Shown: positions 1-17,017 of the stretch, piece by piece
How the letters are laid out: each line of letters starts with the position of its first letter
How positions within the stretch are numbered: position 1 is the first letter of the stretch
IMG/VR virus record: IMGVR_UViG_2850802633_000008
Direction: 5' to 3' (one strand)
DNA length: 17,017 nucleotides
DNA from: a virus
Taxonomy: Duplodnaviria > Heunggongvirae > Uroviricota > Caudoviricetes
Translations under genes and position numbers: made by a program
Notes under the pieces: generated by a model
What the model was told of the DNA's origin: nothing
Database searches by the model: none
What the model saw: the letters and a program-made list of their open reading frames with translations, nothing else

Positions 1-327
1 TCATTTTTTCCAGAGGCGGTCGAACTCCGCCTTCGCAAAATAAGCGGAAGCCTGGCGAAGGATATCGTTACTGCGGCGCAGTTCACGATTTTCACGCTCC
101 AGCTCTTTCAGACGCTGACGTTCAGCGGTGGTGAGCCCTCCATCACCGCCCCCGGTATCCCGCTCATGCTGGCGAACCCAGACACGCAGAGTCTCCGGCG
201 TACAGCCAATCTTTGGGGCAATGGAACAAATTGTCGCCCATTGTGAGTCATATTCGCCCTGACTTTCCAGAACCATACGGACTGCCCGTTGACGGACTTC
301 GGGGGAAAAACGAGTATTTTTAGTCAT
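1..327 (-). CDS. IS3-family transposase OrfA (IS629-like), 108 aa
   Basis: ORF track 1..327 (-), [23 protein letters not shown]...[34 protein letters not shown]. It has the helix-turn-helix plus leucine-zipper layout typical of IS3-family OrfA and matches my recollection of IS629 OrfA. ATG at 327..325, TGA at 3..1. Confidence 0.85.
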
Positions 328-381
328 CCTGTTTACCTCTTTCTCAGGAAGTTTAGTCTCCAGGATTCCCGGGGCGGTTCA
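1..381 (-). mobile_element. IS3-family insertion sequence (IS629/IS1203-like), left-end portion; element continues beyond the window start
   Basis: Complete orfA at 1-327 (-). The minus-strand sequence from 381 downward begins TGAACCGCCCCGGGAATCC..., a TG-initiated terminal repeat of the IS3-family type about 54 bp upstream of the orfA ATG. The exact terminus at 381 is placed from recalled IS629 end sequence, not an alignment. Confidence 0.7.
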
Positions 382-465
382 CGTTGGGTTTTTCTGCTCA
401 TTATTAGCTCCTTCTGATGCCATTCTATTTCAGGAAGGAGTGTCCGTTAAACTCAGGCTACCTCA
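382..465 (-). mobile_element. Remnant left end of a second IS3-family element (IS600-like), interrupted by the IS629-like insertion
   Basis: Minus strand reads TGAGGTAGCCTGAGTTTAACGGACACTCC...CAGAAGGAGCTAATA ATG AGC AGA AAA ACC CAA CG, which then runs straight into the IS629-like terminus. That is a strong RBS plus ATG (401..399) and seven codons (MSRKTQR), matching my recollection of the IS600 OrfA N-terminus. The outer boundary near 465 is inferred, not verified. Confidence 0.4.
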
Positions 466-2183
466 ACTCTCTTTTCAATAGGGTCAAGGTTTTTCATCCC
501 GCCAAGATCTTCTGCCACCTGTTTGAGCATTGACCTTGTTGATGGCGCATCAATTTTTGCACCTGCAGGCATCGCCTTTTCAACATTGCGATAAAGCTGG
601 TCGCTTCGTTTCATCAGCGCAGACATTCTTCCATTGACCGTATCAATAAACTTGTCGCTCATACCAAGAGCATCTTTTGCACCGGAAACGCGATCAATTA
701 TCTCACCCGCGCCCTGTGCTAGCTGCCTGATTGCTTCATTTTCCTGCACCTGTAGAGCAGAACCCGCACGGGACTTGATTGCTTGCTCAACTGCCTTGTA
801 TTGCTCGTTCCCGGAAAAGTGTGAAGGGAGTAATGAATCAACATTAAGCCTTTCAGCAGACTCCAGAACTTCAGCCTGAGGATTGATATCTAGTTCATCA
901 AGCGATGAAGCGAGATTTGGCCTTTTTTGTGCTGCTACTGTGCGAACGACTTCCTCTGGGTTCTTCGTCGCAGGCGTCATTGGTACACCTTGTGCTACTC
1001 TTGCCTCTGCGGCATGAACCGCAGGATTTGTTGCTGCAGCGGCATCACCGGAGAATGGTGATGTTTCTGTTGGCGCAGTGGTCGCTCTCTGTGCAGATGT
1101 TTTATTGCCACTAATTATATTTGATGCACCACGAACACCACGGGTAACGCCATTTATCAGGCCATGCGTAGCAATGCTAAGTCCGGCATTAATAGCGGCA
1201 TTTTCGGCAAAATCACCCCGTTGATTCGCCGCGTCAGCGAGAGAACCAATGACCATGTTTCCAGCTACACCTGCTCCAGGAACAAGATAACCGCCTATTG
1301 ACTCTCCAGCTTGCGCGTAGGGGTCTGTCGGTCTGTCTACTGGACGATAAACATCATCCAATACTTTTGGCCCCCCAAGCCCCTGACTGATTGCATTAAT
1401 CAGACTTGCGCCACCCTGCAATACGTCAAATGGTATGTTTACCAGACCACGACCAGCCTGTTCTGCAATTTGCCCTGCACTTTGACCACCAGTGAGCCAA
1501 TCGCCAGCTTGTTGCATCAATGATGGTTCTTCCCGTGTTGGTGCATTATTGGCCTGATTAACTGTTTGTTGCTGAACAGGTTTCGGTGCGACAGAACTTA
1601 CGGGTTGAGGTGGCTGCTGACTGGCTGCCTGCTGCTCAATCTGAGCAAATGGATTATTTGGGTCTGACTGCACACCTGATGCCGATACTTGTTCGGATGA
1701 CTGTACTTCCAGTTGTGCAAACGGGTTGTTAGGGGCTTGCTGAGGATGTACCTTTGCAGAGGTGGCGCGCTGTTCGACTGTTGAGTCTGTCACCGGGTCA
1801 CCAGCCCATTGAGCAAAGCGATCATCAACGTAACCGCGGCCTTCAGGTCCTGGCGTATATTCACCACGCTTTGCCTTCATAACGTTGCCGGGACCGTCGT
1901 GATAAGCCTGAAGAGCGTCACGCCAGTTACCAAACTGCTGGTACATCTTTGCCAGATAGCGCGCGCCAGCGTCAGCCTGATATTCGGGGTTTTGCATTTG
2001 CTCATCGGTATAACCCATATCACGCCATGTCCTAGGCATGACCTGAGTCAATCCTACAGCCCCGGCGGAGCTTACTGCGGCAGGGTTGTAAGAAGACTCC
2101 TTGGCACCCAGTGCAGTCATCAACCCTTCTGGCACACCGTAACGTGCGCCAGCCTGCTCTAACAAATCACGGTAATTAACCAT
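453..2183 (-). CDS. Internal virion (ejection) protein with N-terminal lytic transglycosylase (SLT) domain; occupies the P22 gene-16 position
   Basis: ORF track 453..2183 (-), 576 aa, ATG at 2183 directly after the TAA of the upstream gene. The N-terminus carries the family-1 lytic transglycosylase motifs: ...[25 protein letters not shown]... (E-S catalytic motif, GLxQ(V)MP) and ...[11 protein letters not shown]... (AYNAG-like). The rest is Q/A/P-rich low complexity, typical of ejection proteins. The last four codons and stop may lie inside the IS600-like end. Confidence 0.75.
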
Positions 2184-3515
2184 TTACTGCCCCAAAGATG
2201 GAAGATATCCGTAGCGATTAATGAAGTCGATTGACAGCTCGGGGTGCTGCTTCAGGTAATCTATAGAAGCCTGAGGCGCTTCCACTCGCTTGATACCGTT
2301 TTGCTGAACGTACTTACCAACCGCCTCATTACGCTTCTGGTTGAGCGTGTTCAGGATGACGCCAGCGTTGCGACGAAAGGACTCCTCGCTCTGCGAGTTC
2401 TGCAGCGAACCAACAGCCTAGTCGAGCTTTTTGCCCTCGGCATCAGAAAGTGCGCCCATGCCTCGCATGGCCTGAACCGCTGTCAGGTATGCTTGTGATT
2501 TAAAGGTATCAAGTCGTGCCTGAGTGTCTGCAGCCTGTGAGCCTGGAACGTTGGGGATTACTCCACGTAAGCCTGTAATGCTCTTAAGTGAAGGAGAACT
2601 AACGATATCGTTCAGAGTGAACATGCTGGTTGTGAGGGTGTTGATGCCGTCTTTGTAGCCATCATTTAGCGCTTGCTGCTTCTGCTGCAACTGCTGGTTG
2701 TTGGCTGCTATGCGGCTCTGTATTTCCTGGCGCTTCAGGTCGTTAGTTTCTGCTGATAGCATCCGGTCAAGGCGCTTATTTTCGTTGTTAATGCGGTTTG
2801 TTTCTGCGTCCAGATTAATGCGCTGCTGACCTAAATTCGCCTGGATATCTTGTCCGCGCATTGTGATTGCCTGATTCCGAGCGGCGGTTTGCGAATCCAG
2901 ATCCTGACCGCGCATGGTAACCTGGCGACCCTGCATTTTATCCTGTAGGTCAAAGTATTTTTCGGGCCCGAGACTGTTCATCCCCAGGTGATCGACAAAT
3001 TCGCCGAACTGCCGCGGGTTCTGTTGGTACATCTGAGCGACGTCATGAGGATTAACGCCAACACGAGCTAACTCACCGGCGTTGTTTTGCAGCCATGATT
3101 GCATTGCTTCTGGAGACGATGACGCAAGGCGTGCGCCAGCCGCTAAGGTGCCGATAGAATTACGCTGCTCTTCATCAATGAATCCCATGCCTTTACGAAC
3201 GGATTCAATCTGGTCTGGATATTGAGTAGCCAACTGACGCAAAGCACCGCGATCACCAGACGCATAAGCATTAGCGTACGCCTGCTGAAATTCTTTCTGC
3301 CGCTGAGCCTGCTTTTCCTGCTGAAAAACACCCGCAATACCTGAAAGACCTTGCAAAGCAGTCAGCCCAACATTGTTAGCGCCTGAACGCTCAATATCAT
3401 TGTTCTGCCTGATAAGCTGAAGCGTATTGCCGATGTCATTTACGCTCGGAGCGTTTGAGTTGACGCCGCCGATACCAGCCAACAATCCGCCGTTTGTTCC
3501 TTGCCAAGTAGCCAT
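2184..3515 (-). pseudogene. gp20-like ejection protein interrupted by an in-frame TAG (2418-2420)
   Basis: ORF track 2418..3515 (-) gives 365 aa (MATWQGTNGG...AEGKKLD) ending at TAG. The same frame stays open for 78 more codons (AVGSLQNSQSEESFRRNAGVILNTLNQKRNEAVGKYVQQNGIKRVEAPQASIDYLKQHPELSIDFINRYGYLPSLGQ) and ends at TAA 2184-2186, immediately before the ATG of the next gene. Gene order matches the P22 7-20-16 ejection-protein block. Confidence 0.65.
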
Positions 3516-3524
3516 GATTACCCC

Positions 3525-4217
3525 TTAAAACAACGAGCCAAGCAATCCGATACCAGCACCAATACCAGCGCCCCAAGGCGTTGATGTTCCCAAAAGGCTG
3601 GCAAGACCTGCACCGGCAATCGCACCAGACGTGCCACCGCTAATTGCAGTCTGAAGACTTGATGGTTTATTGGCATTAGCAGCGGCAAGAGCTGCGCTTT
3701 GCTGTGCAATGCTGCTCATGTTGTTGGCGTACGTCTGCCCGGCGTTTGCCTGACCTTGCAGCGCACCAAGCCCAACGTTTGCCAGATTGTTGTAATTGCT
3801 CATCTGATTTGATAACCAAGACTGACCGAGTGTCGGCGCGATCGTAGCCAGTTGATTGCTTGTGGCTGTCGAACCAAGTCCACCCGTCGCCTCCGCAGCA
3901 GCAAGACTCTGGTAACGCGCCTGCCCTGCAAGGTCTTTATACTGCTTAGAGTTGTAATACTGATTAAGTGCCTGCCCCTGACCTTCTAAACTGGAAAGGT
4001 TCTGAAGCTGGTTAACATACTGCTCCGCAAGAGGCGTGAACGGAGCAAGGTTTTTCATGATCGTCTGCCACTGCTGATTTTGCAGGTCTGCAGCATACTT
4101 CTGGGCTTCTGCTGCATACTTTGCGCTTTTATCAGAACTGCCACCTTTCCCGCCTTTTTCAGGGCAATAAGGTTCCTCGCCGCGCAGTTTTCTGCCCAGC
4201 TTAAATGCATATAACAT
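3525..4217 (-). CDS. gp7-like ejection (internal virion) protein
   Basis: ORF track 3525..4259 (-). The likely true start is the ATG at 4217..4215 (MLYAFKLGRKL...), preceded by GGGAGA with a 5-nt spacer and lying 2 nt after the TAG of the upstream gene. About 230 aa, Q/A/N/G-rich with a Gly-rich hydrophobic C-terminus; size and position match P22 gp7. Confidence 0.7.
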   Translation of the reverse strand: MLYAFKLGRKLRGEEPYCPEKGGKGGSSDKSAKYAAEAQKYAADLQNQQWQTIMKNLAPFTPLAEQYVNQLQNLSSLEGQGQALNQYYNSKQYKDLAGQARYQSLAAAEATGGLGSTATSNQLATIAPTLGQSWLSNQMSNYNNLANVGLGALQGQANAGQTYANNMSSIAQQSAALAAANANKPSSLQTAISGGTSGAIAGAGLASLLGTSTPWGAGIGAGIGLLGSLF

Positions 4218-4219
4218 GG

Positions 4220-4675
4220 CTATCTCCCGTGATTCAGGAAGTCGATTAGTTCTTCGCATGTGCCGCTGTAAAAAGTCACGTCATCCACGCCTTTGAAGTA
4301 TTTCTTGATGGTTCCTACACGCTTAAGGCCAATCATTGCGCAGTACATCTGACCGTGTCGGAATTTGCGTGCAGCGAACGATGTTACGCACTGAACGGTG
4401 GTGTTAGTCAGAATGTATCGCCAGAACGCCAGCCCAATTTCCTTGCTGAAGCCGCGAATCTCTGGCAGGTACATGGCGTGGCAATCTAATGTCAGCGGCT
4501 GAATCTCCTGATAGTAAACAATGCCGCCAAACTGACCGTGCACGTTCACCTCAAAGTAACGGCATTCAGGTTTGTAGTCGTATCCATCACCGTTGTTGCT
4601 CCCGGCGATAATGTCAGGGTGATTTCCGACTGCTTCTATCAGGTCGATGTTTCGCGTTGGTTTGAATGTAATCAT
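4220..4675 (-). CDS. gp14-like virion assembly protein (position-conserved, function uncertain)
   Basis: ORF track 4220..4678 (-). The first track codon is GTG; the ATG at 4675..4673 overlaps the tail-needle TGA (TGATG). About 151 aa. Assignment is by position between the tail-needle and gp7-like genes, as in P22. Confidence 0.55.
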   Translation of the reverse strand: MITFKPTRNIDLIEAVGNHPDIIAGSNNGDGYDYKPECRYFEVNVHGQFGGIVYYQEIQPLTLDCHAMYLPEIRGFSKEIGLAFWRYILTNTTVQCVTSFAARKFRHGQMYCAMIGLKRVGTIKKYFKGVDDVTFYSGTCEELIDFLNHGR

Positions 4676-5523
4676 CACTGCTCCGCGATTATCTTGATGG
4701 TTGTGGCAGTAAACGCCGCACCATTCGACTGAATGGTTAACGTACTGCCATTTGTGGCAAGAAAGCCGTCTTTATCCACGCTGAAGAACGTAGCTAACAG
4801 GATGTTGTCGGTTGTTGTCGCCGCATTACGACTGCTGACCAGTGTGTCAGGAACAGAGCCGGAAAAGGTTAGCTGCATTGACCTGTTGGCGGTTCCGCTG
4901 GGCCACGTGCCGACAATCGACAACTTGAAGAGCAGGGTTTTGTTCTCGTTGAACACAACCATCTTGTTGTTAACGGTGTCGAAGAATGGTGCCAACGAGC
5001 CGGATGACGGTGTGAGCGTTTTCAGCAGGCTAACAAGGTTGGTCGGCGCTGTCGGGATGGTTACAGATACACCAGAGTAAACAACCTCTGACTTCTTGCG
5101 TGTGGTTGCATACTCCAGAGCATCGATGCGCGTTTCATGGTCTGAAACCTGCGACTCCAGCGACTGAACTCTTGTGTCAAGCGACGAAATATCGCTTTCA
5201 TTCTGAGCTATTCGTGTTTCATGGTCCTGAAGAGTTGATTCTGCCTGTCTGATTCGCTCCTCATGATTAACAAGCGTTGCTTCCGCAGCAGAAATTCGCT
5301 GCTCATGGTCAGCGAGAATCACATCCTGCTCATCGTTCCTGACCTGTGCATCATAAGCGCCCTGTCCGGCCTCGTTGGCTTTGTTAGCCACGTTACCAAC
5401 ATCAGTGCCCTGTGCGATAACGTAAAGCAGATACGACTGCGAGAAGATATTGCGTGGAAGGACTGATGTATCGAGCCGCGTAGCTTGGATGATTACCGGC
5501 ACATTGAGATTCGAATCAGCCAT
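4675..5523 (-). CDS. Tail needle protein (gp26-like N-terminus with coiled-coil repeats and a distinct C-terminal knob-type domain)
   Basis: ORF track 4675..5523 (-), 282 aa. N-terminus [43 protein letters not shown]... resembles the P22 gp26 N-terminus as I recall it. It is followed by repeated DHExRI heptad-like units and a Ser/Thr-rich C-terminal domain unlike the P22 gp26 C-terminus. Its ATG overlaps the gp10 stop (TAATG). Confidence 0.85.
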
Positions 5524-6941
5524 TACTCAATCCTTATCTGAGCGCCAGACAGAGTGACAGGTGACTTCGTGATAACGCGCAATTTGAAGCCGACATTTTT
5601 CCTGATGCGCCCTACTCGCTTCCACAAAACACGCTTGTCGTAAACGAACGGTTCATTCTGCTCAATCATCTGCTCACGCCCGTAATTGATGCAGTCAGTG
5701 GTTGCAGAGAGAAAAAGGCGGTCGGCGTACTGCGCAACGCCAGTTGACGATTCAACCTCAAGGTCGAACACTCTGGCGTTATCCGCTTTGAAGAGTGGAG
5801 TAAACAGCAGGTGTTCCTGTTGCTTGTCGTACTGGCTGCTGATATCGAATTGCAGTTTCCCGGTAACAGATTCCAGCTTATCGCCGCACGTTATCTGATT
5901 GCCTTCGTAAACGAAGTCGATAGCGCGGTACACATCGTCATACAGACCTGTTTTCAGCACACACCATTGTGGGCCATTGGCGCTTGAAGATGCGTCGTAC
6001 ACGAGGACGTGACGCGGAAGGTGGATAATCAGCAACTCATGAGCATCAAATCGCAGCGATTCCATCACACCATCAGCCAGTTCATCAGCAGTGTAGGAGC
6101 GGAGGATTTTCTCAATGCTCGCGCTGACAATTGGTGACACCTGACCGGAGTCGATGATATACACAGACGGCGCACCCGTTGCCGGATTGCTGATAAACGC
6201 ATACGAATCAGCGAATGGCGTTTTGCAGTAAGTTCCGGCAATGCCTTTCTGCACCATCAGCGATGGTTGTGCAACATACAAAGCGGCACCAACGGTGGTT
6301 GCGCCAGTCAGGGAGAAATATTCAATAGTCGATGAACCAAAGCAGACGATGAAGTCTCGCCATGTCCCGATACCGATGATGCCGTCAGGCTGAGACTCGG
6401 CACGATATTGTGCGCTGTAACGGTCAGGATGAGATTCGTCTTCAAGGTCAGTGATAAACCATGAATCAGTTCCGTCTTTTGACCACGCATAACGCCCACG
6501 TAAGCGCGTAATGTCGCGAACTGAACCTAACTCATACTGAGTGAATCCACTGTCTGTAGGCCAGTTTGAGACGGTTTTGACCGTGCCATCATAGCGATAC
6601 TCGACCAGTTGACCATTAACGCCTACCGCCTGTGATGTCCGACCATGCGCCATTGATACACGACCACTTCCGGCAACATCACCGACTTCACTTTCTCCTT
6701 TGTACAGCTTGCCGCCACACACGCGATAAACAGCATTCTGCGCCATGTTGTACTCGACGCCGCGAGATACACCGTTCACGTCAGAACGTTTGGCAATGCC
6801 CGGGAATGAGCGAAGATATCCGCTGCTGTTCAGGATTTCTTTGGGTGTAGCCAGCATATTCACTGGCAGATAGTCGATATAGTCGGCGTTTCGGAAGTCT
6901 TTGCCGACACCTTTCATAAGCGGAAGTTGCTGAATAGGCAT
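5523..6941 (-). CDS. gp10-like head completion / tail hub protein
   Basis: ORF track 5523..6941 (-), 472 aa, the same length as P22 gp10; sits between the gp4-like and tail-needle genes. The start overlaps the gp4 stop (TAATG). Confidence 0.85.
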
Positions 6942-7441
6942 TATTCGCTCCCGTTATCGCAAGGTTCCTTTCGGTGGAAGTAATTCCAACCATTCCACTT
7001 CGCCAACTGGTTACCACTACCAACAGGCATACGGTTTGGATAACCGGACTTACATTTAGCTGCTTTTGCCCTGTCCATTGCAGACAGTTTGACGAGTCGC
7101 TCTTTCCCGTATCTGGCAGTGGCTATAAGTTTTGCAGACGCTTCCAGCGCATAATCTGGAGCAATTCGGCAGGCAAGGTTGAAAATGACGGCATTGATAG
7201 CGTTATTTGATAAACCGTGCTCATCGCCCGGATCCGGAGCAACATCTGCATCAGCAAAAATGTAGCCAACGTTGATACCAGGTGACGCATCACCGCCAAG
7301 CCATTCAGCCATCATCATTTCAAGGTCGTTGACGCCGTCTTCCATAGACTGCGGTTCGACATCGGTTAACGTGGCATTTGATGCAACACCGAGCTTACGT
7401 AATGCCGCAAGAACTAAATCACCCTTCGTTGTCAGGTTCAT
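6941..7441 (-). CDS. gp4-like head completion / portal-binding tail adaptor protein
   Basis: ORF track 6941..7510 (-). The start is chosen at the internal ATG 7441..7439 ([21 protein letters not shown]...[10 protein letters not shown]...) because it aligns with the recalled P22 gp4 N-terminus ([21 protein letters not shown]). This gives 166 aa, with AAGG 10 nt upstream. Confidence 0.8.
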
Positions 7442-7649
7442 CTGCTGCCGCCTTAGGTTTTCGACCAGGCTTTTTACGCTGTTTTTCTTCTGGCTCTGGC
7501 TCTGCAACATCCTTCAAAAGGTCATCAGGATGTGAAAACCAGCCAGCATCCAGATATTCCTGAAGCTCTTCGGCTTTCACGATTTCAAAGTCGTAGCCAA
7601 CGCCTTTCCACTTCTTCATGTCGCCATGACGAAAGATCATGTGTGTCAT
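7419..7649 (-). CDS. Small hypothetical protein between coat and gp4-like genes (about 76 aa, highly charged C-terminal tail)
   Basis: ORF track 7419..7697 (-). The first 16 track codons overlap the coat terminator hairpin. The ATG at 7649..7647 has GGAGA 5 nt upstream (CTGGAGACAAGCATG). Sequence [38 protein letters not shown]...[27 protein letters not shown]; its 3' end overlaps the gp4 start by 23 nt. Confidence 0.45.
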
Positions 7650-7661
7650 GCTTGTCTCCAG

Positions 7662-7685
7662 ATAAAAACGGGAGCCGAAGCTCCC
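7662..7685 (-). terminator. Candidate intrinsic terminator immediately downstream of the coat gene
   Basis: Minus-strand RNA GGGAGC-UUCG-GCUCCC (6-bp GC-rich stem, UUCG tetraloop, 7670-7685) followed by GUUUUUAUC (7661-7669). It lies 9 nt after the coat stop and just before the RBS of the small ORF. Confidence 0.5.
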
Positions 7686-7693
7686 TCTGGTTA

Positions 7694-8989
7694 TCACGCG
7701 GTCTGGTTAGGCAGACCAACACCAATTGCCTCTGGTCGTACAGCACATGCTGAATACCACACAGCAATACGGCACTTACCAGACAGAGTGTTGATATCAC
7801 CCTGCGTTGCGAAGATGCCGTTAACACCAATACCTGGAATGCTGAAGGAAGACGTTTTCATGCCAGCAAACAGTTCATGGGTTACCGGGATCGGCTGAGA
7901 CAGCAGGCGGATTGAGTCATCAGCCCAGAACACGTTAGCGGTGGTTGTTGCCACGTTCAGAACGTTTACCGGAGTGGTATCAGCAAGAGAGGTGTTTACG
8001 TTAGCGTAAGCCTTCTCTTCTTTTGTCAGTGACGCGTCATCCAGCGCAATCGGCTTCGGCGTGATTTCGATGTGAGTACCATCGATCACACGGGTGATTG
8101 AGAAAGTCGCGTCATCAGTCAGCACATTCTTCGCCATCTGAGACAGGAACTTCACACCAATGAAGCTGATTTTGTCGCCGCGCTTAAATCCGGTGGTGGA
8201 GGATACGGTCACCGTTGCAACACGGTTGTCGACGTTCTCTTTGTTACCATCGGTATCAAGGGTGTATGCCTGCGGCTTAAACTTCTGCGCACCAGAAACA
8301 GTTACACCAGTCGCGGTTGACTTGGTAACTGCCGGAAGTTTCGGTGAGCGAAGAATTTCATCAAAGCCAGCAATCTGACGCTGAATAGTACCGTTTCGAT
8401 ATGCTTCTTCAGGAACGCGCCCGAAGATGTCACCATCTACCAGGTTGCGGCCTGCTTTGCGGTAATCGTCAGGGTTCAGGAAGTAACTGATGCCCATGTC
8501 GCGGTTTAGCTCACGGGAGAACATCAGTCGCTCTGCATCAGACACAAAATCCCAGCCAGGCAGGCCAGTCGATGGACCAATTGCGCGGGTATCGTGAACA
8601 ACAAGCGAGCCCATTTCAGTTGCCTGTTTGGCAATCGCTGACTCAATGTTATTCGCCAGTTTTTTGGCGGATGCCTGGATGCGGCGACGGTAAGAACGCT
8701 CATCACGCAGGTCATCTGCACGAAGCTCGAAGAAATCGTTATCCGGATCGCCCATGTTGCACTTCACGGAGAGTTCCAGAATCCCGGTTGCGTTGCCAGT
8801 TAAATCCCAGCCAGTCTGGGTTGGCGCTTCCTGCTCAACAGGCATCCACACGGTGTTGCTTGAACGCTGCATGGATTCTGCCGGAGGGGGGTATTTTGTC
8901 ACTTTTGACGCCATTGGCGTCAGGTTCTGGACGGTTCCGATGATTTCATCCAGAGCATACGTGACCAGTTGACCTTCATTTAATGCCAT
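7694..8989 (-). CDS. Major capsid (coat) protein, P22 gp5-like
   Basis: ORF track 7694..8989 (-), 431 aa. [20 protein letters not shown]...[39 protein letters not shown]...[34 protein letters not shown]... matches the recalled P22 coat protein across its length. The start overlaps the scaffold stop (TAATG). Confidence 0.92.
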
Positions 8990-9900
8990 TATCGAATTCC
9001 TTTATTCAGTTGCGCCTTGAGCTTGCGGTACGTCTCTACATCCCCTTTGTTTGCTGCCGCCTCCATCTGCTTTTCAATCGCAGAGATATTTGCAGCAACA
9101 GCATGTCCCTGAATGGGTTCATCAGGTAACGGGGCTTCTGAAACAGGCTTGGCTCGAGGCTTGAGAGTTAAACGTTCTGACAGTCGAGTGAGTTCAATCA
9201 GCGCGGATTGCCCGTCCATCGCCAGCAACTGGCGTGTTTTCTCAGGATTAGCACCAAGGTGATACATGAGAGCGGCGGATTTCTCCGGGAAGAGGCGCAT
9301 GATGTCGGCACCGACTGCTGGCGGCACCAGTTGCATGAATGCATCCTCTTTCTCCTGATAGTCAGGGATATTGAGCTTTTCCGCTGCCTCGTAGTGCTTA
9401 CGGGCCGCCTCGACGTATTGCGCTGATTGCTGGGTGAACTCCTGAGTTTTGCGACCCTGCTCGGCGACAGCCTGGCTTCGTGCGTCCATAGCCTTGATCT
9501 GCCATTCACTGTTTGCCTGCTGGAAGGCAGCCAGTGCGCGGCTCTGGTCATAGTCGTACTTAGCCAGTGCATCTTCGGAAAGATAATCGTTAGGGTCTGG
9601 TTGTTTTGGTAACTCAGGGTTCACCCGCAGGTGCTCCGGCAACTCTCCACGCTTAACCGCTTCCATCTGCTGCTCAAGCTCACGCTGGCGTTTGCGTTCG
9701 ATGCGGCGACGGGCAAATTCAGCATTAGTTGCCGGGTCTTGTTTTGGTTTCTCATCGTCTTTCAGGACAATCTCAAAGCCTTCTTCCTGACCTGCGCTGT
9801 CGTTGGCATTATCGACAACTAAGCCATCAGCAGATGCCGCTGCATGATTGCCGGGCAGGGTTAATTCTTCAGAAGCCTGAATGTCGGTGGTTTGGTCCAT
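8989..9900 (-). CDS. Scaffolding protein, P22 gp8-like
   Basis: ORF track 8989..9900 (-), 303 aa, the same length as P22 gp8. Recalled conserved stretches: ...[14 protein letters not shown]...[31 protein letters not shown]...[42 protein letters not shown]...[11 protein letters not shown]. Confidence 0.9.
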
Positions 9901-9913
9901 GATTAACTCTCTC

Positions 9914-12079
9914 TTATTGAGGTGTCTCGGCTACTCCGCCGGAGGGGATTTGAACTTGACGCATAAGATTCGCGAAATCCATGCGTTGTGAATGAGTCTG
10001 GTCTGCATCTTTAAGAAGCAGCTCAGCGTTAGCACGAGCATCTTTGCTGCGCTGTTGCTGGAATTGACCTACGAGCCTGAGGTACTCACGCAGTTCTGCC
10101 TGCTTGTCGAGGTCCATATTGTTGAATATTTCTGCAATCTTCGCGGCGTTGAGTTGGTTTTGGGCTTCAACCTTGGCAGCTTCAACCTGAATCTGCGCCT
10201 GTTGGTTCTCTGCCTTGAGCAATTCAGCCTGACCTTGCAGAAGGATACCCTGCGCCTGAATTTGCTCTGCTGATGGCTGCTGCGGCTGTTGTTGTGCCTG
10301 CTGCACCATCTCCATCTCTTCAGGTGTTTCTGGTTTCTTCAGCCCCATCATCACCAGTTGCTTGTTCGCGTACTCTCGCATCATCTCGACGCCTTTACCG
10401 TCAAGCAGCGTGAAGTATTGCAGCATCAGCATCTGGAACTCTGGAGTACCTTGCGGAACCTTGGTGAGCAACTCCTGAATCTCTGCGCGGTTCTGTTCCT
10501 TCATACTCTGGAAGGATGGCCCAACGTCTGTATAGCACTCATATCGACCGCGAATGTCGTTGAGTGTGACCACATTGCCGGACTGGTAATCGACAACTTG
10601 CGCATAGAGTTGAACGTCTTTCTCGCTTCCATCTTCAAGTGTCAGCGTTACATGACGAGGAACGTCATAAATATCGTTGACCATTGAGGCATAAATCTCG
10701 CCATCACGTCGCATTGCGGTAGCCAGGTTATCCTGAAACACGTATGTCTCAAGGTCTGCCCGCATGTTCAGTTGATTGACGGTATCAAAAGCGACCTGAC
10801 CATTTGCCGCCTGCGCATCCACGCCAAGACTAGCCACTTCTTTCACTGCGTTGGTGGCAGCCTCAAGCATGTAAGCGTTGGCTTGCGGCACTTCAGGGTT
10901 TTCCATGTAGGAGATTGGACCAATCGGCAGGTCGTTACCGTTTTCATCGGTCCTGTTCTGCAGATAGTACGGATAGTCATCATTTCCGCCGTACATGTAT
11001 TCGTAGCCTTCGATTTGCTCAGGGAAGAAGGTCGGTTTCTTCTTCGGTGACCGAGCAACAATATCGGCGTTGAACGACATAATCATGTTACGAAGGCGTT
11101 GACCGTCTTTCGTCAGCCTTACCACACCCTCGTAGCACTCCTTGTCACCAGCGAATGACCATTCGCCATACACTGGAACGATTGGAATATGCTCTCCGGC
11201 TATCTTCTCGCGGTCTTTCAGTATCTGCGTACAGGTGATGATCGACTTATACACACGCCGACGCTTCACCTTGCGCTCTGCTACCTTAATGAATCCACGA
11301 TTAGCCAGGTCGTCGATGACGTCTTTGATATCCTGCTGGTAATAGCTGACCGGCTCACCTGTCAGCGGGTCGCGGTAGATGAAGACCTTCTCCTTCTCCT
11401 CTTCTACCTCGTAATACTCAGCGACGTAGACGACATCATTCGACACCCACGGGAATAGCCATGTATCGTTAGGATTCTGGAAAGATGGCAGGGTATCCGG
11501 GTCAATACCGTAATCCTCTGCGAACTCTTTCCAGCCATTGCGCGACAAGGCGTTAATCACCGTGCAGTGCTTAGCGTCGCTCTTATCCATCTGCTTGCTG
11601 TTGGCGTCTCATATGACGTGTGAGCAGGCTTCATGGATTGGCAGGCGTCGGATTACCTGATTGTTGCTTGTTGGATCGTTGTCTTCGTACTGCGTGACCA
11701 GACGCCATGCACCAACGCCTGACTCTATCTGCTCACGAACGCCAACGTTAACGGCAATCTTTGCCGTGTTATGGCGCATATCAGTACGATACATCCCCAT
11801 CAATACATCGGCTGCATCAGGATTAGCGCCGTCTTTGGGTCGGAAGAGAACGTCGACAGGGTTCCGGCGCATCTCTGCGACCAGTTTCCTGACCCCCGGG
11901 CGAACAACATCGAATTGTCCGCGATATTGCAGGGTAGTGTAGTTTGATAGCCAGTCATCCCATTGCGACACTCGGCTAAAATACAGGTCATTTGTCGCCT
12001 CGGTTCTGGCTTCATCGCTCGCCATCCAGTCTGCGTCAAACTTACACAGAATGGAATTGAGTCTGTTTTCGTCGGCCAT
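9914..12079 (-). pseudogene. Portal protein (P22 gp1-like) interrupted by an in-frame TGA at 11609-11611
   Basis: ORF track 11609..12079 (-, 156 aa, [43 protein letters not shown]...HEACSHVI) and 9914..11590 (-, 558 aa, [11 protein letters not shown]...VAETPQ) are in one frame. The gap reads [21 protein letters not shown]. The recalled P22 portal has Trp at that position (HVIWDSNSK), so this is TGG->TGA. Combined length is about 721 aa. Confidence 0.85.
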
Positions 12080-13120
12080 TTAAGTTCTCCGTGCGATGGG
12101 CCTGATTGGGGCTGGTATCTTTTTCTCTTTTGGTTTTTTGATGTCGCGCATCATTTTTGCGAAGCGGCGCATCATGTATGCATAGCGAACGGCGGATAGC
12201 ACGTCGTCGTTAAGCTTGACGATTTTCCCGTTTTCATCACGGTGATAGAGGCGGAACTCCTCAAAGAATGGCTCACAGGTATTGAATACTTTGAAGCGAC
12301 CATCGAGCATCATGTCGCGCAATTCAGTGATGCCTGGCTCAACAGCGTTACCGCCATCAGGCCATGTCGCATGCTCCTGCAACATCATAAATCCAGCGTC
12401 TGCATACTGCCCTTTGAGCTGCTCACCGCCGCCCTTCTCGTGCTGGTTTCCATCATGAGGCCATGCGGTTGGCACTTTATGCGCCCATGATTTAACGGCT
12501 CCCCACGCCTGAACGGCTGTTTTTTCTTTCGCCTTCCACACGCGTGAAACGTAGATTGTGTCTGCCTCCTTATCCCACCAAAGCTGAACTTGCGCCTGTG
12601 GGTGATCCCATCCGAAATCCATCCCGCCAATTACGTAGAAGTGATCAGGACACTCGAACGGCTGACACTTAATCGTCTCTTCCGGTATCTGGAAGATTCG
12701 ACCACTACCCATCGTAGGAATACCGCGAGCACGCGCCTCTCTCTCATGCTCGGGATATGATGCGATGATTTGCTCTTTCTGCTCGTCGGTATAGTGCTCA
12801 GCGTCATAGATGGTCATGTTGACCACTTTCTGCGACTTGCTGGGGTTCTTCAGGAACTTGGTAACAACGTCAGACATCCCCATCAGCGGGGTAAACGTCA
12901 GAATTGAGAATTGCCCGTATTTGTTGGTACGGGTAAGACCTTCGCCATAAATGCTGTATGGTGGCTCTTCGTCAAACCACACGCCGTGGATTGTGTCACC
13001 CTGCCAGCGAGCACGGCCTTGCGAGTATGGCTTGAAGTAGCAGATTGAAATGCCATCTTCAACGCCATCAGCCGTGTGATGCTTAACCAGAAGGTGATCA
13101 ACAAGGTTCGGAAAGAAAGG
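12080..13120 (-). pseudogene. Large terminase subunit, 5'-truncated by the IS911 insertion (C-terminal about 346 codons retained)
   Basis: ORF track 12080..12982 (-) starts at an internal GTG. The frame is open upstream with no start codon back to the IS911 end at 13121 and on into the IS to a TGA at 13166-13168. The retained part is the C-terminal nuclease-type region (...VIGGMDFGWDHP...LNDDVLSAVRYAYMMRR...). No Walker-A ATPase N-terminus and no small-terminase gene are present. The stop abuts the portal ATG. Confidence 0.8.
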
Positions 13121-13192
13121 TGAAGTGGCACACTGAATTTGGCCACCTGAACAGAGGTGATATGCTCACCTCAGAACAACACAGGTGCTCCA

Positions 13193-14361
<1,169 letters not shown>

Positions 14362-14369
14362 CCACTTCA

Positions 14370-14762
14370 ATATGGACCATCTGTCGTGGTGCCACAATGG
14401 TGGATGGTAAGCCCGTCATACCGGGAATGAAGCTGTCGAAGGAAAAATGCGACCAGGTTAACGCTATTGAACGTGATAAGGCGCTGGCATGGGTGGAGCG
14501 CAATATTAAAGTACCACTGACCGAACCACAGAAAGCGGGTATAGCGTCATTTTGTCCCTATAACATTGGCCCAGGTAAGTGTTTCCCGTCGACGTTTTAT
14601 AAGCGGCTGAATGCCGGTGATCGTAAGGGCGCATGCGAGGCGATTCGCTGGTGGATAAAAGATGGTGGGCGCGATTGCCGCATACGTTCAAATAACTGCT
14701 ATGGACAGGTTATTCGTCGTGACCAGGAAAGCGCATTAGCCTGTTGGGGGATAGATCAGTGA
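14370..14762 (+). pseudogene. Phage lysozyme (endolysin, lambdoid R21/T4-lysozyme-like family), 5'-truncated by IS911
   Basis: ORF track 14355..14762 (+) starts at a TTG inside the IS911 right repeat. The native sequence begins at 14370 (IWTICRGATMVDGKPVIPGMKLSKEKCDQVNAIERDKALAWVERNIKVPLTEPQKAGIASFCPYNIGPGKCFPSTFYKRLNAGDRKGACEAIRWWIKDGGRDCRIRSNNCYGQVIRRDQESALACWGIDQ). The N-terminal roughly 45-50 residues, including the expected catalytic Glu, are missing. Confidence 0.8.
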
Positions 14763-15226
14763 GCTGAGTCGCCGCGATTATTTATGCTCTGGTTATCTGC
14801 ATCATCGTCTGCCTGTCGTGGGCGGTCAATCATTACCGTGATAACGCCATCGCCTACAAAGAACAGCGTGATAAAAAAGTCAGTGAGCTGAAGCTGGCGA
14901 CCGCCACCATTACTGACATGCAGCAACGCCAGCGTGCTGCTGATGTACTCGATGCTAAATACACGAAGGAGTTGGCTGATGCGAAAGCTGAAAATGATGC
15001 TCTTCGGCGCAAGCTTGATAATGGTGGCCGGGTGCTCGTCAAAGGAAAATGCTCTGTGCCATCCTCAGCCGAAACCTCCAGCGCCTCCGGCATGGGCAAT
15101 GATGCCACCGTCGAACTCTCTCCAGTTGCTGGACGAAACGTTCTCGGTATCCGGGACGGAATCATCAGAGACCAGACAGCACTGAGAACGCTTCAGGAAT
15201 ATATCAGGACGCAATGCCTTCGATGA
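14759..15226 (+). pseudogene. Rz: Rz i-spanin (lambda Rz-like) with TGA at codon 3
   Basis: GTG AGC TGA at 14759-14767 overlaps the lysozyme stop. The same frame then encodes the expected N-terminal transmembrane segment ([31 protein letters not shown]...) and continues into ORF track 14918..15226 (...[34 protein letters not shown]...[10 protein letters not shown]). Lambda Rz begins ATG AGC AGA GTC ACC GCG ATT ATC as I recall, so the Arg codon is replaced by a stop. There is no in-frame ATG/GTG/TTG between the TGA and 14918. Confidence 0.7.
14979..15185 (+). CDS. Rz1: Rz1 o-spanin (outer-membrane lipoprotein), embedded in the +1 frame of Rz
   Basis: ATG at 14979 with AAGGAG 8 nt upstream. 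[44 protein letters not shown]... carries a lipobox (VAGC) and a proline-rich periplasmic segment, and lies wholly inside Rz. The track ORF 14934..15185 starts 15 codons upstream. Confidence 0.8.
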
Positions 15227-15400
15227 TAGAGATAATTTTACTCATCATCCTTCACATCTGGCTCTGTAGACAGGGTGGTGATCACTTCTGGAGGGAATCC
15301 AGATTAAACATCTCATTGCTGATGCTTAAAGTTGAGCATTTGGCGCGCGGTAAGGGGCTGCGTTTAGATAAGAGCCAGTCATCACAAACACCAGGATTTA

Positions 15401-15426
15401 GCCTCGCATTCGCGGGGCTTTTTATT
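15401..15426 (+). terminator. Candidate intrinsic terminator downstream of Rz/Rz1
   Basis: GCCUCGC-AUUC-GCGGGGC (7-bp stem with one G-U pair, 15401-15418) followed by UUUUUAUU (15419-15426). It ends only 18 nt before the ATG of the next gene. Confidence 0.4.
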
Positions 15427-15444
15427 GCAACAAAGGTAAAGACG

Positions 15445-15732
15445 ATGGATGAAGAATATCGTAAAGACCTGCAACTGTGGTTTGGTCTTACGCATGCGTC
15501 GTTCTGCGTGATGCCGCGAGTATTCATGGAGGCTATGCCTCCAGAATGGCAAGAGAAGATGGCTCAGTTGCTTTTTGAGTATAGCGACACGATCAAAACG
15601 GATGTCTGCGGAGTTCACAGCTGTTTTGTTACTGCCAAAGACGGCAACAACCGCTTTATGAGGATGCCAGAAGATATTCTGAACTATCGTCATCCTCGAC
15701 GTGAATTCATCGAATCATTTCTGAAGAAGTAG
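15445..15732 (+). CDS. Hypothetical protein (95 aa), possible moron downstream of the lysis cassette
   Basis: ATG at 15445 with AAAGG 8-9 nt upstream; TAG at 15730-15732. MDEEYRKDLQLWFGLTHASFCVMPRVFMEAMPPEWQEKMAQLLFEYSDTIKTDVCGVHSCFVTAKDGNNRFMRMPEDILNYRHPRREFIESFLKK. I do not recognise a family. The 77 codons upstream in the track ORF 15214..15732 are treated as non-coding read-through. Confidence 0.5.
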   Translation: MDEEYRKDLQLWFGLTHASFCVMPRVFMEAMPPEWQEKMAQLLFEYSDTIKTDVCGVHSCFVTAKDGNNRFMRMPEDILNYRHPRREFIESFLKK

Positions 15733-15788
15733 CCATTACAAAGCCTATCTACGGGTGGGTTTGATAATGGCTTATACTGGATTTGCCC

Positions 15789-16694
15789 CTATATTTCCAG
15801 ACATCTGTTATCACTTAACCCATTACAAGCCCGCTGCCGCAGATATTCCCGTGGCGAGCGATAACCCAGCGCACTATGCGGATGCCATTCGTTATAATGC
15901 TCGAACGCCTCTGCAAGGTTCTTTGCTGCCGTTAACCCGTCTGGTTTGGGCATGATACTGATGTAGTCACGCTTTATCGTTTTCACGAAGCTCTCTGCTA
16001 TTCCGTTACTCTCCGGACTCCGCACCGCCGTGTTCTTCGGTTCAAGTCCCAACATCCGGGCGAACTGGCGTGTTTCATTAGCCCGGTAGCATGAACCATT
16101 ATCCGTCAGCTACTCCACTGGAGACGACGGAAGATCGTTGCCGAAGCGGCGTTCCACCGCTCCCAGCATGACATCCTGTACTGTTTCACTGTTGAAGCCG
16201 CCGGTAGTCACCGCCCAGTGCAGTGCCTCACGATCACAGCAATCCAGCGCGAACGTGACACGCAGTCTCTCTCCGTTATCACAGCAGAACTCGAACCCGT
16301 CAGAGCACCATCGCTGATTGCTTTCTTTCACGGCCACTCTGCCTGTATGTGCCCGTTTCGATGGCGGTACAGCAGGTTTTCGCTCAAGCAACAGCGCATT
16401 CTGGCGCATGAGCCGGTAAACACGTTTGGCATTGATCGCAGGCATACCATCAAGTTCTGCCTGTCTGCGAAGCAGCGCCCATACCCGACGATAACCATAC
16501 GTGGGCAGCTCTCCGATAACATGGTGTATACGGAGAAGCACATCCGTATCATCAGTGTGACGACTGCGGCGGCCATCCATCCAGTCATCGGTTCGTCTGA
16601 GAATGACGTGCAACTGCGCACGCGACACCCGGAGACAACGGCTGACTAAGCTTACTCCCCATCCCCGGGCAATAAGGGCGCGTGCGCTATCCAC
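15789..16694 (-). pseudogene. insD: IS2 transposase InsD (OrfB) interrupted by an in-frame TAG at 16110-16112
   Basis: ORF track 16110..16694 (-, ...[11 protein letters not shown] then stop) and 15789..16055 (-, [11 protein letters not shown]...) are in one frame. Translating the gap gives [33 protein letters not shown]. The recalled IS2 InsD reads [14 protein letters not shown], so this is TGG->TAG. Confidence 0.85.
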
Positions 16695-17017
16695 TTTTTT
16701 GCCCGTCCATATTCAACGGCTTCTTTGAGGAGTTCATTTTCCATCGTTTTCTTGCCGAGCAGGCGCTGGAGTTCTTTAATCTGCTTCATGGCGGCAGCAA
16801 GTTCAGAGGCAGGAACAACCTGTTCTCCGGCGGCCACAGCAGTAAGACTTCCTTCCTGGTATTGCTTACGCCAGAGAAATAACTGGCTGGCTGCTACACC
16901 ATGTTGCCGGGCAACGAGGGAGACCGTCATCCCCGGTTCAAAGCTCTGCTGAACAATTGCGATCTTTTCCTGTGTGGTACGCCGTCTGCGTTTCTCCGGC
17001 CCTAAGACATCAATCAT
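16652..17017 (-). CDS. insC: IS2 InsC (OrfA), 121 aa
   Basis: ORF track 16652..17017 (-), [61 protein letters not shown]...[41 protein letters not shown]. Matches the recalled IS2 InsC. Confidence 0.92.
16694..16700 (-). promoter_or_regulatory. IS2 programmed -1 frameshift heptamer A-AAA-AAG in the insC/insD overlap
   Basis: Plus strand CTTTTTT at 16694-16700 is AAAAAAG on the minus strand, in register with the insC frame (A-AAA-AAG). The insD frame is the -1 frame relative to insC. Confidence 0.7.

Follow-up and report, generated by a model that had tools for sequence, protein, structure and literature searches.

The window (the whole stretch of 17,017 nt analysed here) carries on its minus strand, between positions 9914 and 12079, a homologue of the P22 portal gene (gp1; 721 codons plus stop), which translates in a frame of 722 codons interrupted by only one internal stop. 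This stop is a TGA at codon 157 (11609..11611, minus strand), embedded in the minus-strand reading CAC GTC ATA TGA GAC GCC (context AUA-UGA-G). It delimits an N-terminal ORF of 156 aa (11609..12079, minus strand, TGA included), listed in the public protein collection as 'portal domain protein [Shigella flexneri 1235-66]', and is followed by a C-terminal ORF of 558 aa (9914..11590, minus strand). The latter starts at an incidental ATG six codons past the stop, which encodes an internal Met of the intact portal and corresponds to Met in P22 too. Both ORFs are assigned to the Pfam family P22_portal.

Affiliation of the gene with the P22-type portal family (PF16510; PDB 3lj5, 5jj3) is evident from its full-length homology to P22 gp1 as well as from its position between large terminase and scaffold in a P22-like morphogenesis operon, the order terminase, portal, scaffold, coat being shared with P22. 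Alignment to the P22 portal structure 3lj5_A (residues 3–721 on 4–725) proceeds in one stretch (E = 0, 1273 bits), with Trp158 of the P22 portal standing opposite the window stop and with no domain boundary or natural gene split at this point. Unlike in P22, the frame of about 720 aa is broken at the codon matching Trp158, and the gene resides in a non-viable remnant (see below); due to the TGA at codon 157 it represents a pseudogene of the PF16510 family.

The closest intact portals are those of a prophage of Escherichia coli 2013C-4991 and of phage IME10 (98.5 and 97.9 % DNA identity, respectively; gapless). Gapless matches of 97–98.5 % identity to annotated portal genes further include other E. 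coli Lederbergvirus phages (Dewey and others), phage Sf101 and more than 200 E. coli prophages. In contrast to the window gene, the portals of IME10, Sf101, Dewey and the 2013C-4991 prophage are intact (721 codons), belong to complete phage genomes and possess TGG at codon 157, as confirmed codon by codon for the 2013C-4991 prophage and IME10. Since both of these close relatives have TGG (Trp), they are separated from the window by a single G>A transition on the coding strand, the derived base being plus-strand position 11609 (T in the window, C in intact alleles). The initial annotation had proposed the replacement of a Trp codon by TGA in an otherwise conserved portal, described the two ORFs as sharing one frame and cited the P22 sequence at this site; all of this agrees with the comparisons above, the coordinates being correct and only the minus-strand location having been omitted. 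Its statement that a product of 156 residues cannot be a portal likewise holds, and a genuine domain boundary, named there as a possible refutation, is excluded by the single continuous alignment.

The pseudogene is part of a remnant of about 12.7 kb (453..13123) comprising head and ejection genes bracketed by IS elements. Upstream of the portal gene lies a 5'-truncated fragment of the large terminase gene (12080..13123, minus strand), which lacks about 150–170 N-terminal codons and encodes 300 aa as compared to 499 aa in full-length cluster members. Homology to IME10 ends at window position 13123, equivalent to IME10 position 6957, whereas the IME10 gene starts at 6447, i.e., 510 nt further; no small terminase gene is present upstream of the fragment. 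The terminase break is abutted by an IS911 (IS3 family) copy (approximately 13120..14373, plus strand; 99 % identity to annotated IS911), comprising orfA (13157–13495) and orfB (13522–14361; IS3-family transposase, E = 6.7e-90), with the IS911 match beginning at about 13119–13121 and transcription directed away from the head-gene cluster. Between IS911 and an IS2 copy, a lysis-gene fragment (approximately 14374..15740, plus strand; DNA match and Pfam) contains a truncated lysozyme gene (118–121 aa versus 177 aa in locus L014), an Rz-like ORF and a 172-aa ORF. This fragment is inverted relative to the head genes, and positions 14760–14875 match the lysis genes of locus L001 and of IME10 (locus L002) in opposite orientation. 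In other S. flexneri genomes, for example, a fuller lysis cassette is enclosed by two IS911 copies, or IS911 is oppositely oriented; these differing arrangements indicate IS-mediated inversions. The IS2 copy (15740..17017, minus strand) runs off the window and harbours a transposase gene (orfB, 15789–16694) with an in-frame TAG at 16110–16112 (Trp195 to stop; context ...SPVE*LTDNGS...). Other copies at this site have TGG, and the TAG is polymorphic even inside the lineage carrying the portal TGA (TGG in UAUS01000007.1), making it a third, more recent nonsense mutation.

On the other side of the portal gene, seven head and tail-accessory genes are still open across 3525..9900 (all on the minus strand and recognized by Pfam): those for scaffold (8989–9900), coat (7694–8989), gp4 (6941–7441), gp10 (5523–6941), gp26 (4675–5523), gp14 (4220–4675) and gp7 (3525–4217). 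Codon 140 of gp14 (window 4258) is TGC (Cys) in the window, CP026768.1 and SRR4897405, but CGC (Arg) in IME10 and all other S. flexneri copies covering the site, and thus represents a near-private missense change. The following gene for the DNA ejection protein gp20 (2184..3515, minus strand) contains a nonsense mutation, CAG>TAG at codon 366 (2418–2420), identified by gapless comparison with IME10 and shortening the product from 443 to 365 aa. The gp16 homologue (453..2183, minus strand) is cut at its 3' end by an IS3-family element (1..471, minus strand; orfA at 1–327), recognized by IS homology, which forms the other boundary of the remnant; gp16 has 576 aa here versus 911 aa in phage Sf101, to which the homology stops at about window position 466 (codon ~573 of 911). 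The last few gp16 codons and the stop are supplied by the IS end (about 453–471).

Chromosomal genes adjoin on both sides, i.e., psiF, phoA, iraP and ddlA past the IS3-family element and type VI secretion genes past IS2. Flanked in this way, the remnant is without tailspike, integrase, immunity and replication genes, and late-regulatory genes are absent as well, so that essential genes of the phage life cycle are missing. No NCBIfam family was obtained for the terminase fragment or for two small ORFs of the lysis region, the identity of which is based on DNA homology and Pfam marks. In thousands of S. flexneri assemblies, the remnant is located at this same site, bordered by psiF-phoA and by a degraded type VI secretion cluster; 3278 blocks of the collection list its coat protein in exact form.

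The stop allele is reproducible and confined to part of this population. Exact sequences of the 156-aa and 558-aa products are present on 140 and 124 contigs, respectively, all of them labelled as Shigella flexneri and derived from NCBI genomes as well as independent read-run assemblies. TGA was found in 14 of 14 distinct fragment-bearing records examined, among them five complete chromosomes and five independent read-run assemblies; complete chromosomes of this lineage include CP026765.1, CP026792.1, CP026768.1, CP020753.1 and UGYS01000001.1, and the window is identical to CP026768.1 across the comparable 11.5 kb. An exact-match scan with 41 nt spanning the TGA yielded no match in a collection of species-representative genomes, which holds one genome per species and evidently none with this allele. 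The intact TGG allele of the S. flexneri portal, in comparison, resides on at least 1000 contigs, and searches with the products of the coat gene and the truncated terminase gene found many further S. flexneri genomes in which this remnant occupies the same chromosomal site and encodes a 721-aa portal and a 443-aa gp20. Altogether, 13 distinct S. flexneri records have TGG, as do both E. coli relatives (phage and prophage).

The order of events follows from five records with TGG portals (CP026788.1, CP178302.1, NEDR01000003.1, CP004057.1 and ADUV01000065.1), which are identical to the window over the whole terminase fragment and 500 nt upstream, including the IS911–terminase junction; only three bases differ, all in the portal gene and one of them being the TGG/TGA site. 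The same junction combined with TGG portals implies that the truncation is ancestral and the portal stop derived, and since the junction is shared by the TGG majority, the nonsense mutation arose in a prophage already unable to package DNA. With IME10 as outgroup, the ancestral states are TGG (portal) and CAG (gp20), TGG being also the majority allele of S. flexneri. Portal and gp20 stops are perfectly linked, all 16 TGA loci having TAG and all 7 TGG loci having CAG. Judged from these sequence comparisons, the IS truncations are shared and ancestral, and the portal and gp20 stops are derived in one minority sublineage. The portal gene varies at two further codons. Codon 62 (window 11895) occurs in three states, GTG (Val) in E. 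coli phages, GAG (Glu) in the S. flexneri majority and GGG (Gly) in the TGA lineage; two changes at a single base are unexpected given so little divergence. Codon 63 is also variable (Val/Gly) in one strain.

Variation within the remnant points to relaxed selection. The window and eight full-length S. flexneri copies differ at 30 sites, and 22 of the 29 coding changes, counted over all remnant genes, are nonsynonymous or nonsense versus 7 synonymous. A comparison of two live relatives yields 10 nonsynonymous versus 47 synonymous codon differences in the genes for portal, scaffold and coat (Fisher's exact p = 2e-7, with all genes counted for the remnant, three for the live relatives, and numbers small); restricted to these three genes, the remnant counts are 8 versus 2 (p = 2e-4). 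Neutral mutation produces a ratio of about 3:1, and the substitution pattern thus indicates neutral decay. Additional lesions have accumulated in individual isolates of the TGA lineage: a 1-nt deletion in the coat gene (CP026765.1), 1-nt deletions in the portal and gp10 genes (SRR1811630), a 6-nt deletion in the portal gene together with gp10 Q370* (SRR4897405), and coat E325* together with gp20 Q225* (SRR33123153). The single-base deletions could be assembly errors, which is less likely for the nonsense SNPs. In the scaffold KN150717.1 (loci L024/L031), likewise of this lineage, the portal gene is split by an inversion breakpoint (about 10640–11800 of the window), so that its 5' part and the terminase fragment no longer adjoin the other remnant genes.

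Several alternatives to a plain nonsense mutation were considered. A sequencing or assembly error, which the initial annotation had named as a second possible refutation, would agree with the single-base difference from close relatives, but is ruled out by the 140 contigs and the independent assemblies with the exact fragment and is at odds with the perfect linkage to the gp20 TAG, leaving it a negligible probability. The initial annotation had further argued that DNA-filled capsids could assemble only if the UGA is read through. Leaky or programmed decoding of the UGA as Trp would restore the wild-type residue exactly, and no other interruption of the portal frame is present in the window. 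Among stop codons, UGA is the leakiest and is misread as Trp, some basal read-through by tRNA-Trp being expected in enterobacteria. Trace amounts of full-length portal may therefore be formed by basal misreading; a literature search on the context-dependent rate of UGA read-through in E. coli yielded nothing directly usable. The argument, however, presupposes a working phage, whereas the element is an IS-bounded remnant without a complete large terminase: small terminase, tailspike, regulatory and replication genes are likewise lacking, gp16 is truncated and gp20 has a stop of its own. Furthermore, a segment of 86 nt spanning the UGA and the sequence behind it shows no greater folding stability than shuffled sequences (-19 kcal/mol versus a shuffle mean of -20.6; z = +0.58), the substitution pattern is neutral, and the stop is not conserved, all homologues outside one sublineage of one species having TGG, including the same remnant elsewhere. 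Programmed read-through as known from the Q-beta A1 protein shares with the present case only an in-frame UGA within a phage structural gene; there, a conserved stop precedes an extension that is the rarer, functional product, while here a recent derived allele without conserved context is found in a dead element. That read-through provides enough full-length portal for filled capsids is accordingly highly improbable. Decoding of the UGA as selenocysteine, or a functional two-piece portal made by re-initiation at the ATG six codons downstream, would be in line with the proximity of this ATG and with the annotation of both pieces by gene callers. Yet neither the fold nor an Rfam scan of the whole window (no match) revealed a SECIS hairpin just downstream of the UGA, and no Shine-Dalgarno motif precedes the ATG of the 558-aa ORF in AGCAAGCAG. 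The sequence downstream of the stop is the same in TGG alleles, so any structure there would not have evolved for the stop; moreover, the P22 portal is one continuous chain in this region, and no split portal occurs among the intact 721-aa relatives listed. Either form of this explanation is exceedingly unlikely.

Another explanation regards the head-gene cluster as a domesticated module, for example serving as capsid source for satellites or as recombination reservoir for P22-like phages, with the stop tuning or disabling it in one lineage. The fixed site in very many S. flexneri assemblies could suggest retention, and in most of them every ORF from portal to gp20 is open despite the neutral substitution pattern; even in the window, seven head/tail genes are open apart from two nonsense mutations and two IS truncations. 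In addition, S. flexneri is a host of related live phages such as Sf101. Against domestication, the 22 versus 7 coding changes fit neutrality and are sharply unlike the purifying pattern in live relatives, and different isolates possess different extra knock-outs. No sigma-70-like consensus promoter was found upstream (11500–13400), which constitutes weak negative evidence. S. flexneri lineages are only centuries old (PMC7373316), so that open ORFs need no selection to persist. Domestication is thus very unlikely. A combination of the two ideas, in which an IS-bounded cassette is retained as recombination donor or as capsid/portal source for Sf101-/Sf6-like phages or satellites, with UGA-to-Trp read-through trickling portal in the TGA sublineage, is speculative and highly improbable.

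The TGA is thus, with high probability, a simple nonsense mutation pseudogenising the portal of a cryptic P22-like (Lederbergvirus-type) prophage remnant of S. flexneri. The remnant, bracketed by IS elements, had already lost everything needed for making or packaging phage when a single G>A transition converted TGG to TGA (Trp157 to stop). In such a dead prophage, the portal mutation would have been selectively neutral, spreading to fixation through drift or hitch-hiking within one S. flexneri sublineage along with the gp20 nonsense mutation. If transcribed at all, the gene would yield a useless 156-residue fragment, perhaps with traces of a 558-residue or read-through product without any role; the remnant is probably neither expressed nor of any function.

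Such a course is in agreement with the genome biology of S. flexneri, which is characterized by IS expansion (including IS2 and IS911) and lineage-fixed pseudogenes (Hawkey et al. 2020, PMC7373316). Like the cryptic or 'grounded' prophages and the IS-driven pseudogenisation known from Shigella (PMC7373316), the present locus shows bounds and rearrangements associated with IS911, IS2 and IS3-family elements, lineage-fixed nonsense mutations and variable knock-outs between isolates, with no difference of substance. The portal gene is an ordinary pseudogene of an already known kind, for which read-through is unnecessary and unsupported. For a correct annotation, both portal ORFs have to be joined into a single pseudogene, and the region is to be labelled a cryptic prophage remnant instead of a prophage. 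Beyond annotation, the locus is of little importance; it provides a small, clean illustration of dead-prophage decay, in which IS truncations common to all copies were followed by portal W157* and gp20 Q366* in a sublineage and by IS2 tnpB W195* in a subset thereof, and these nested lesions could serve as lineage markers for S. flexneri.
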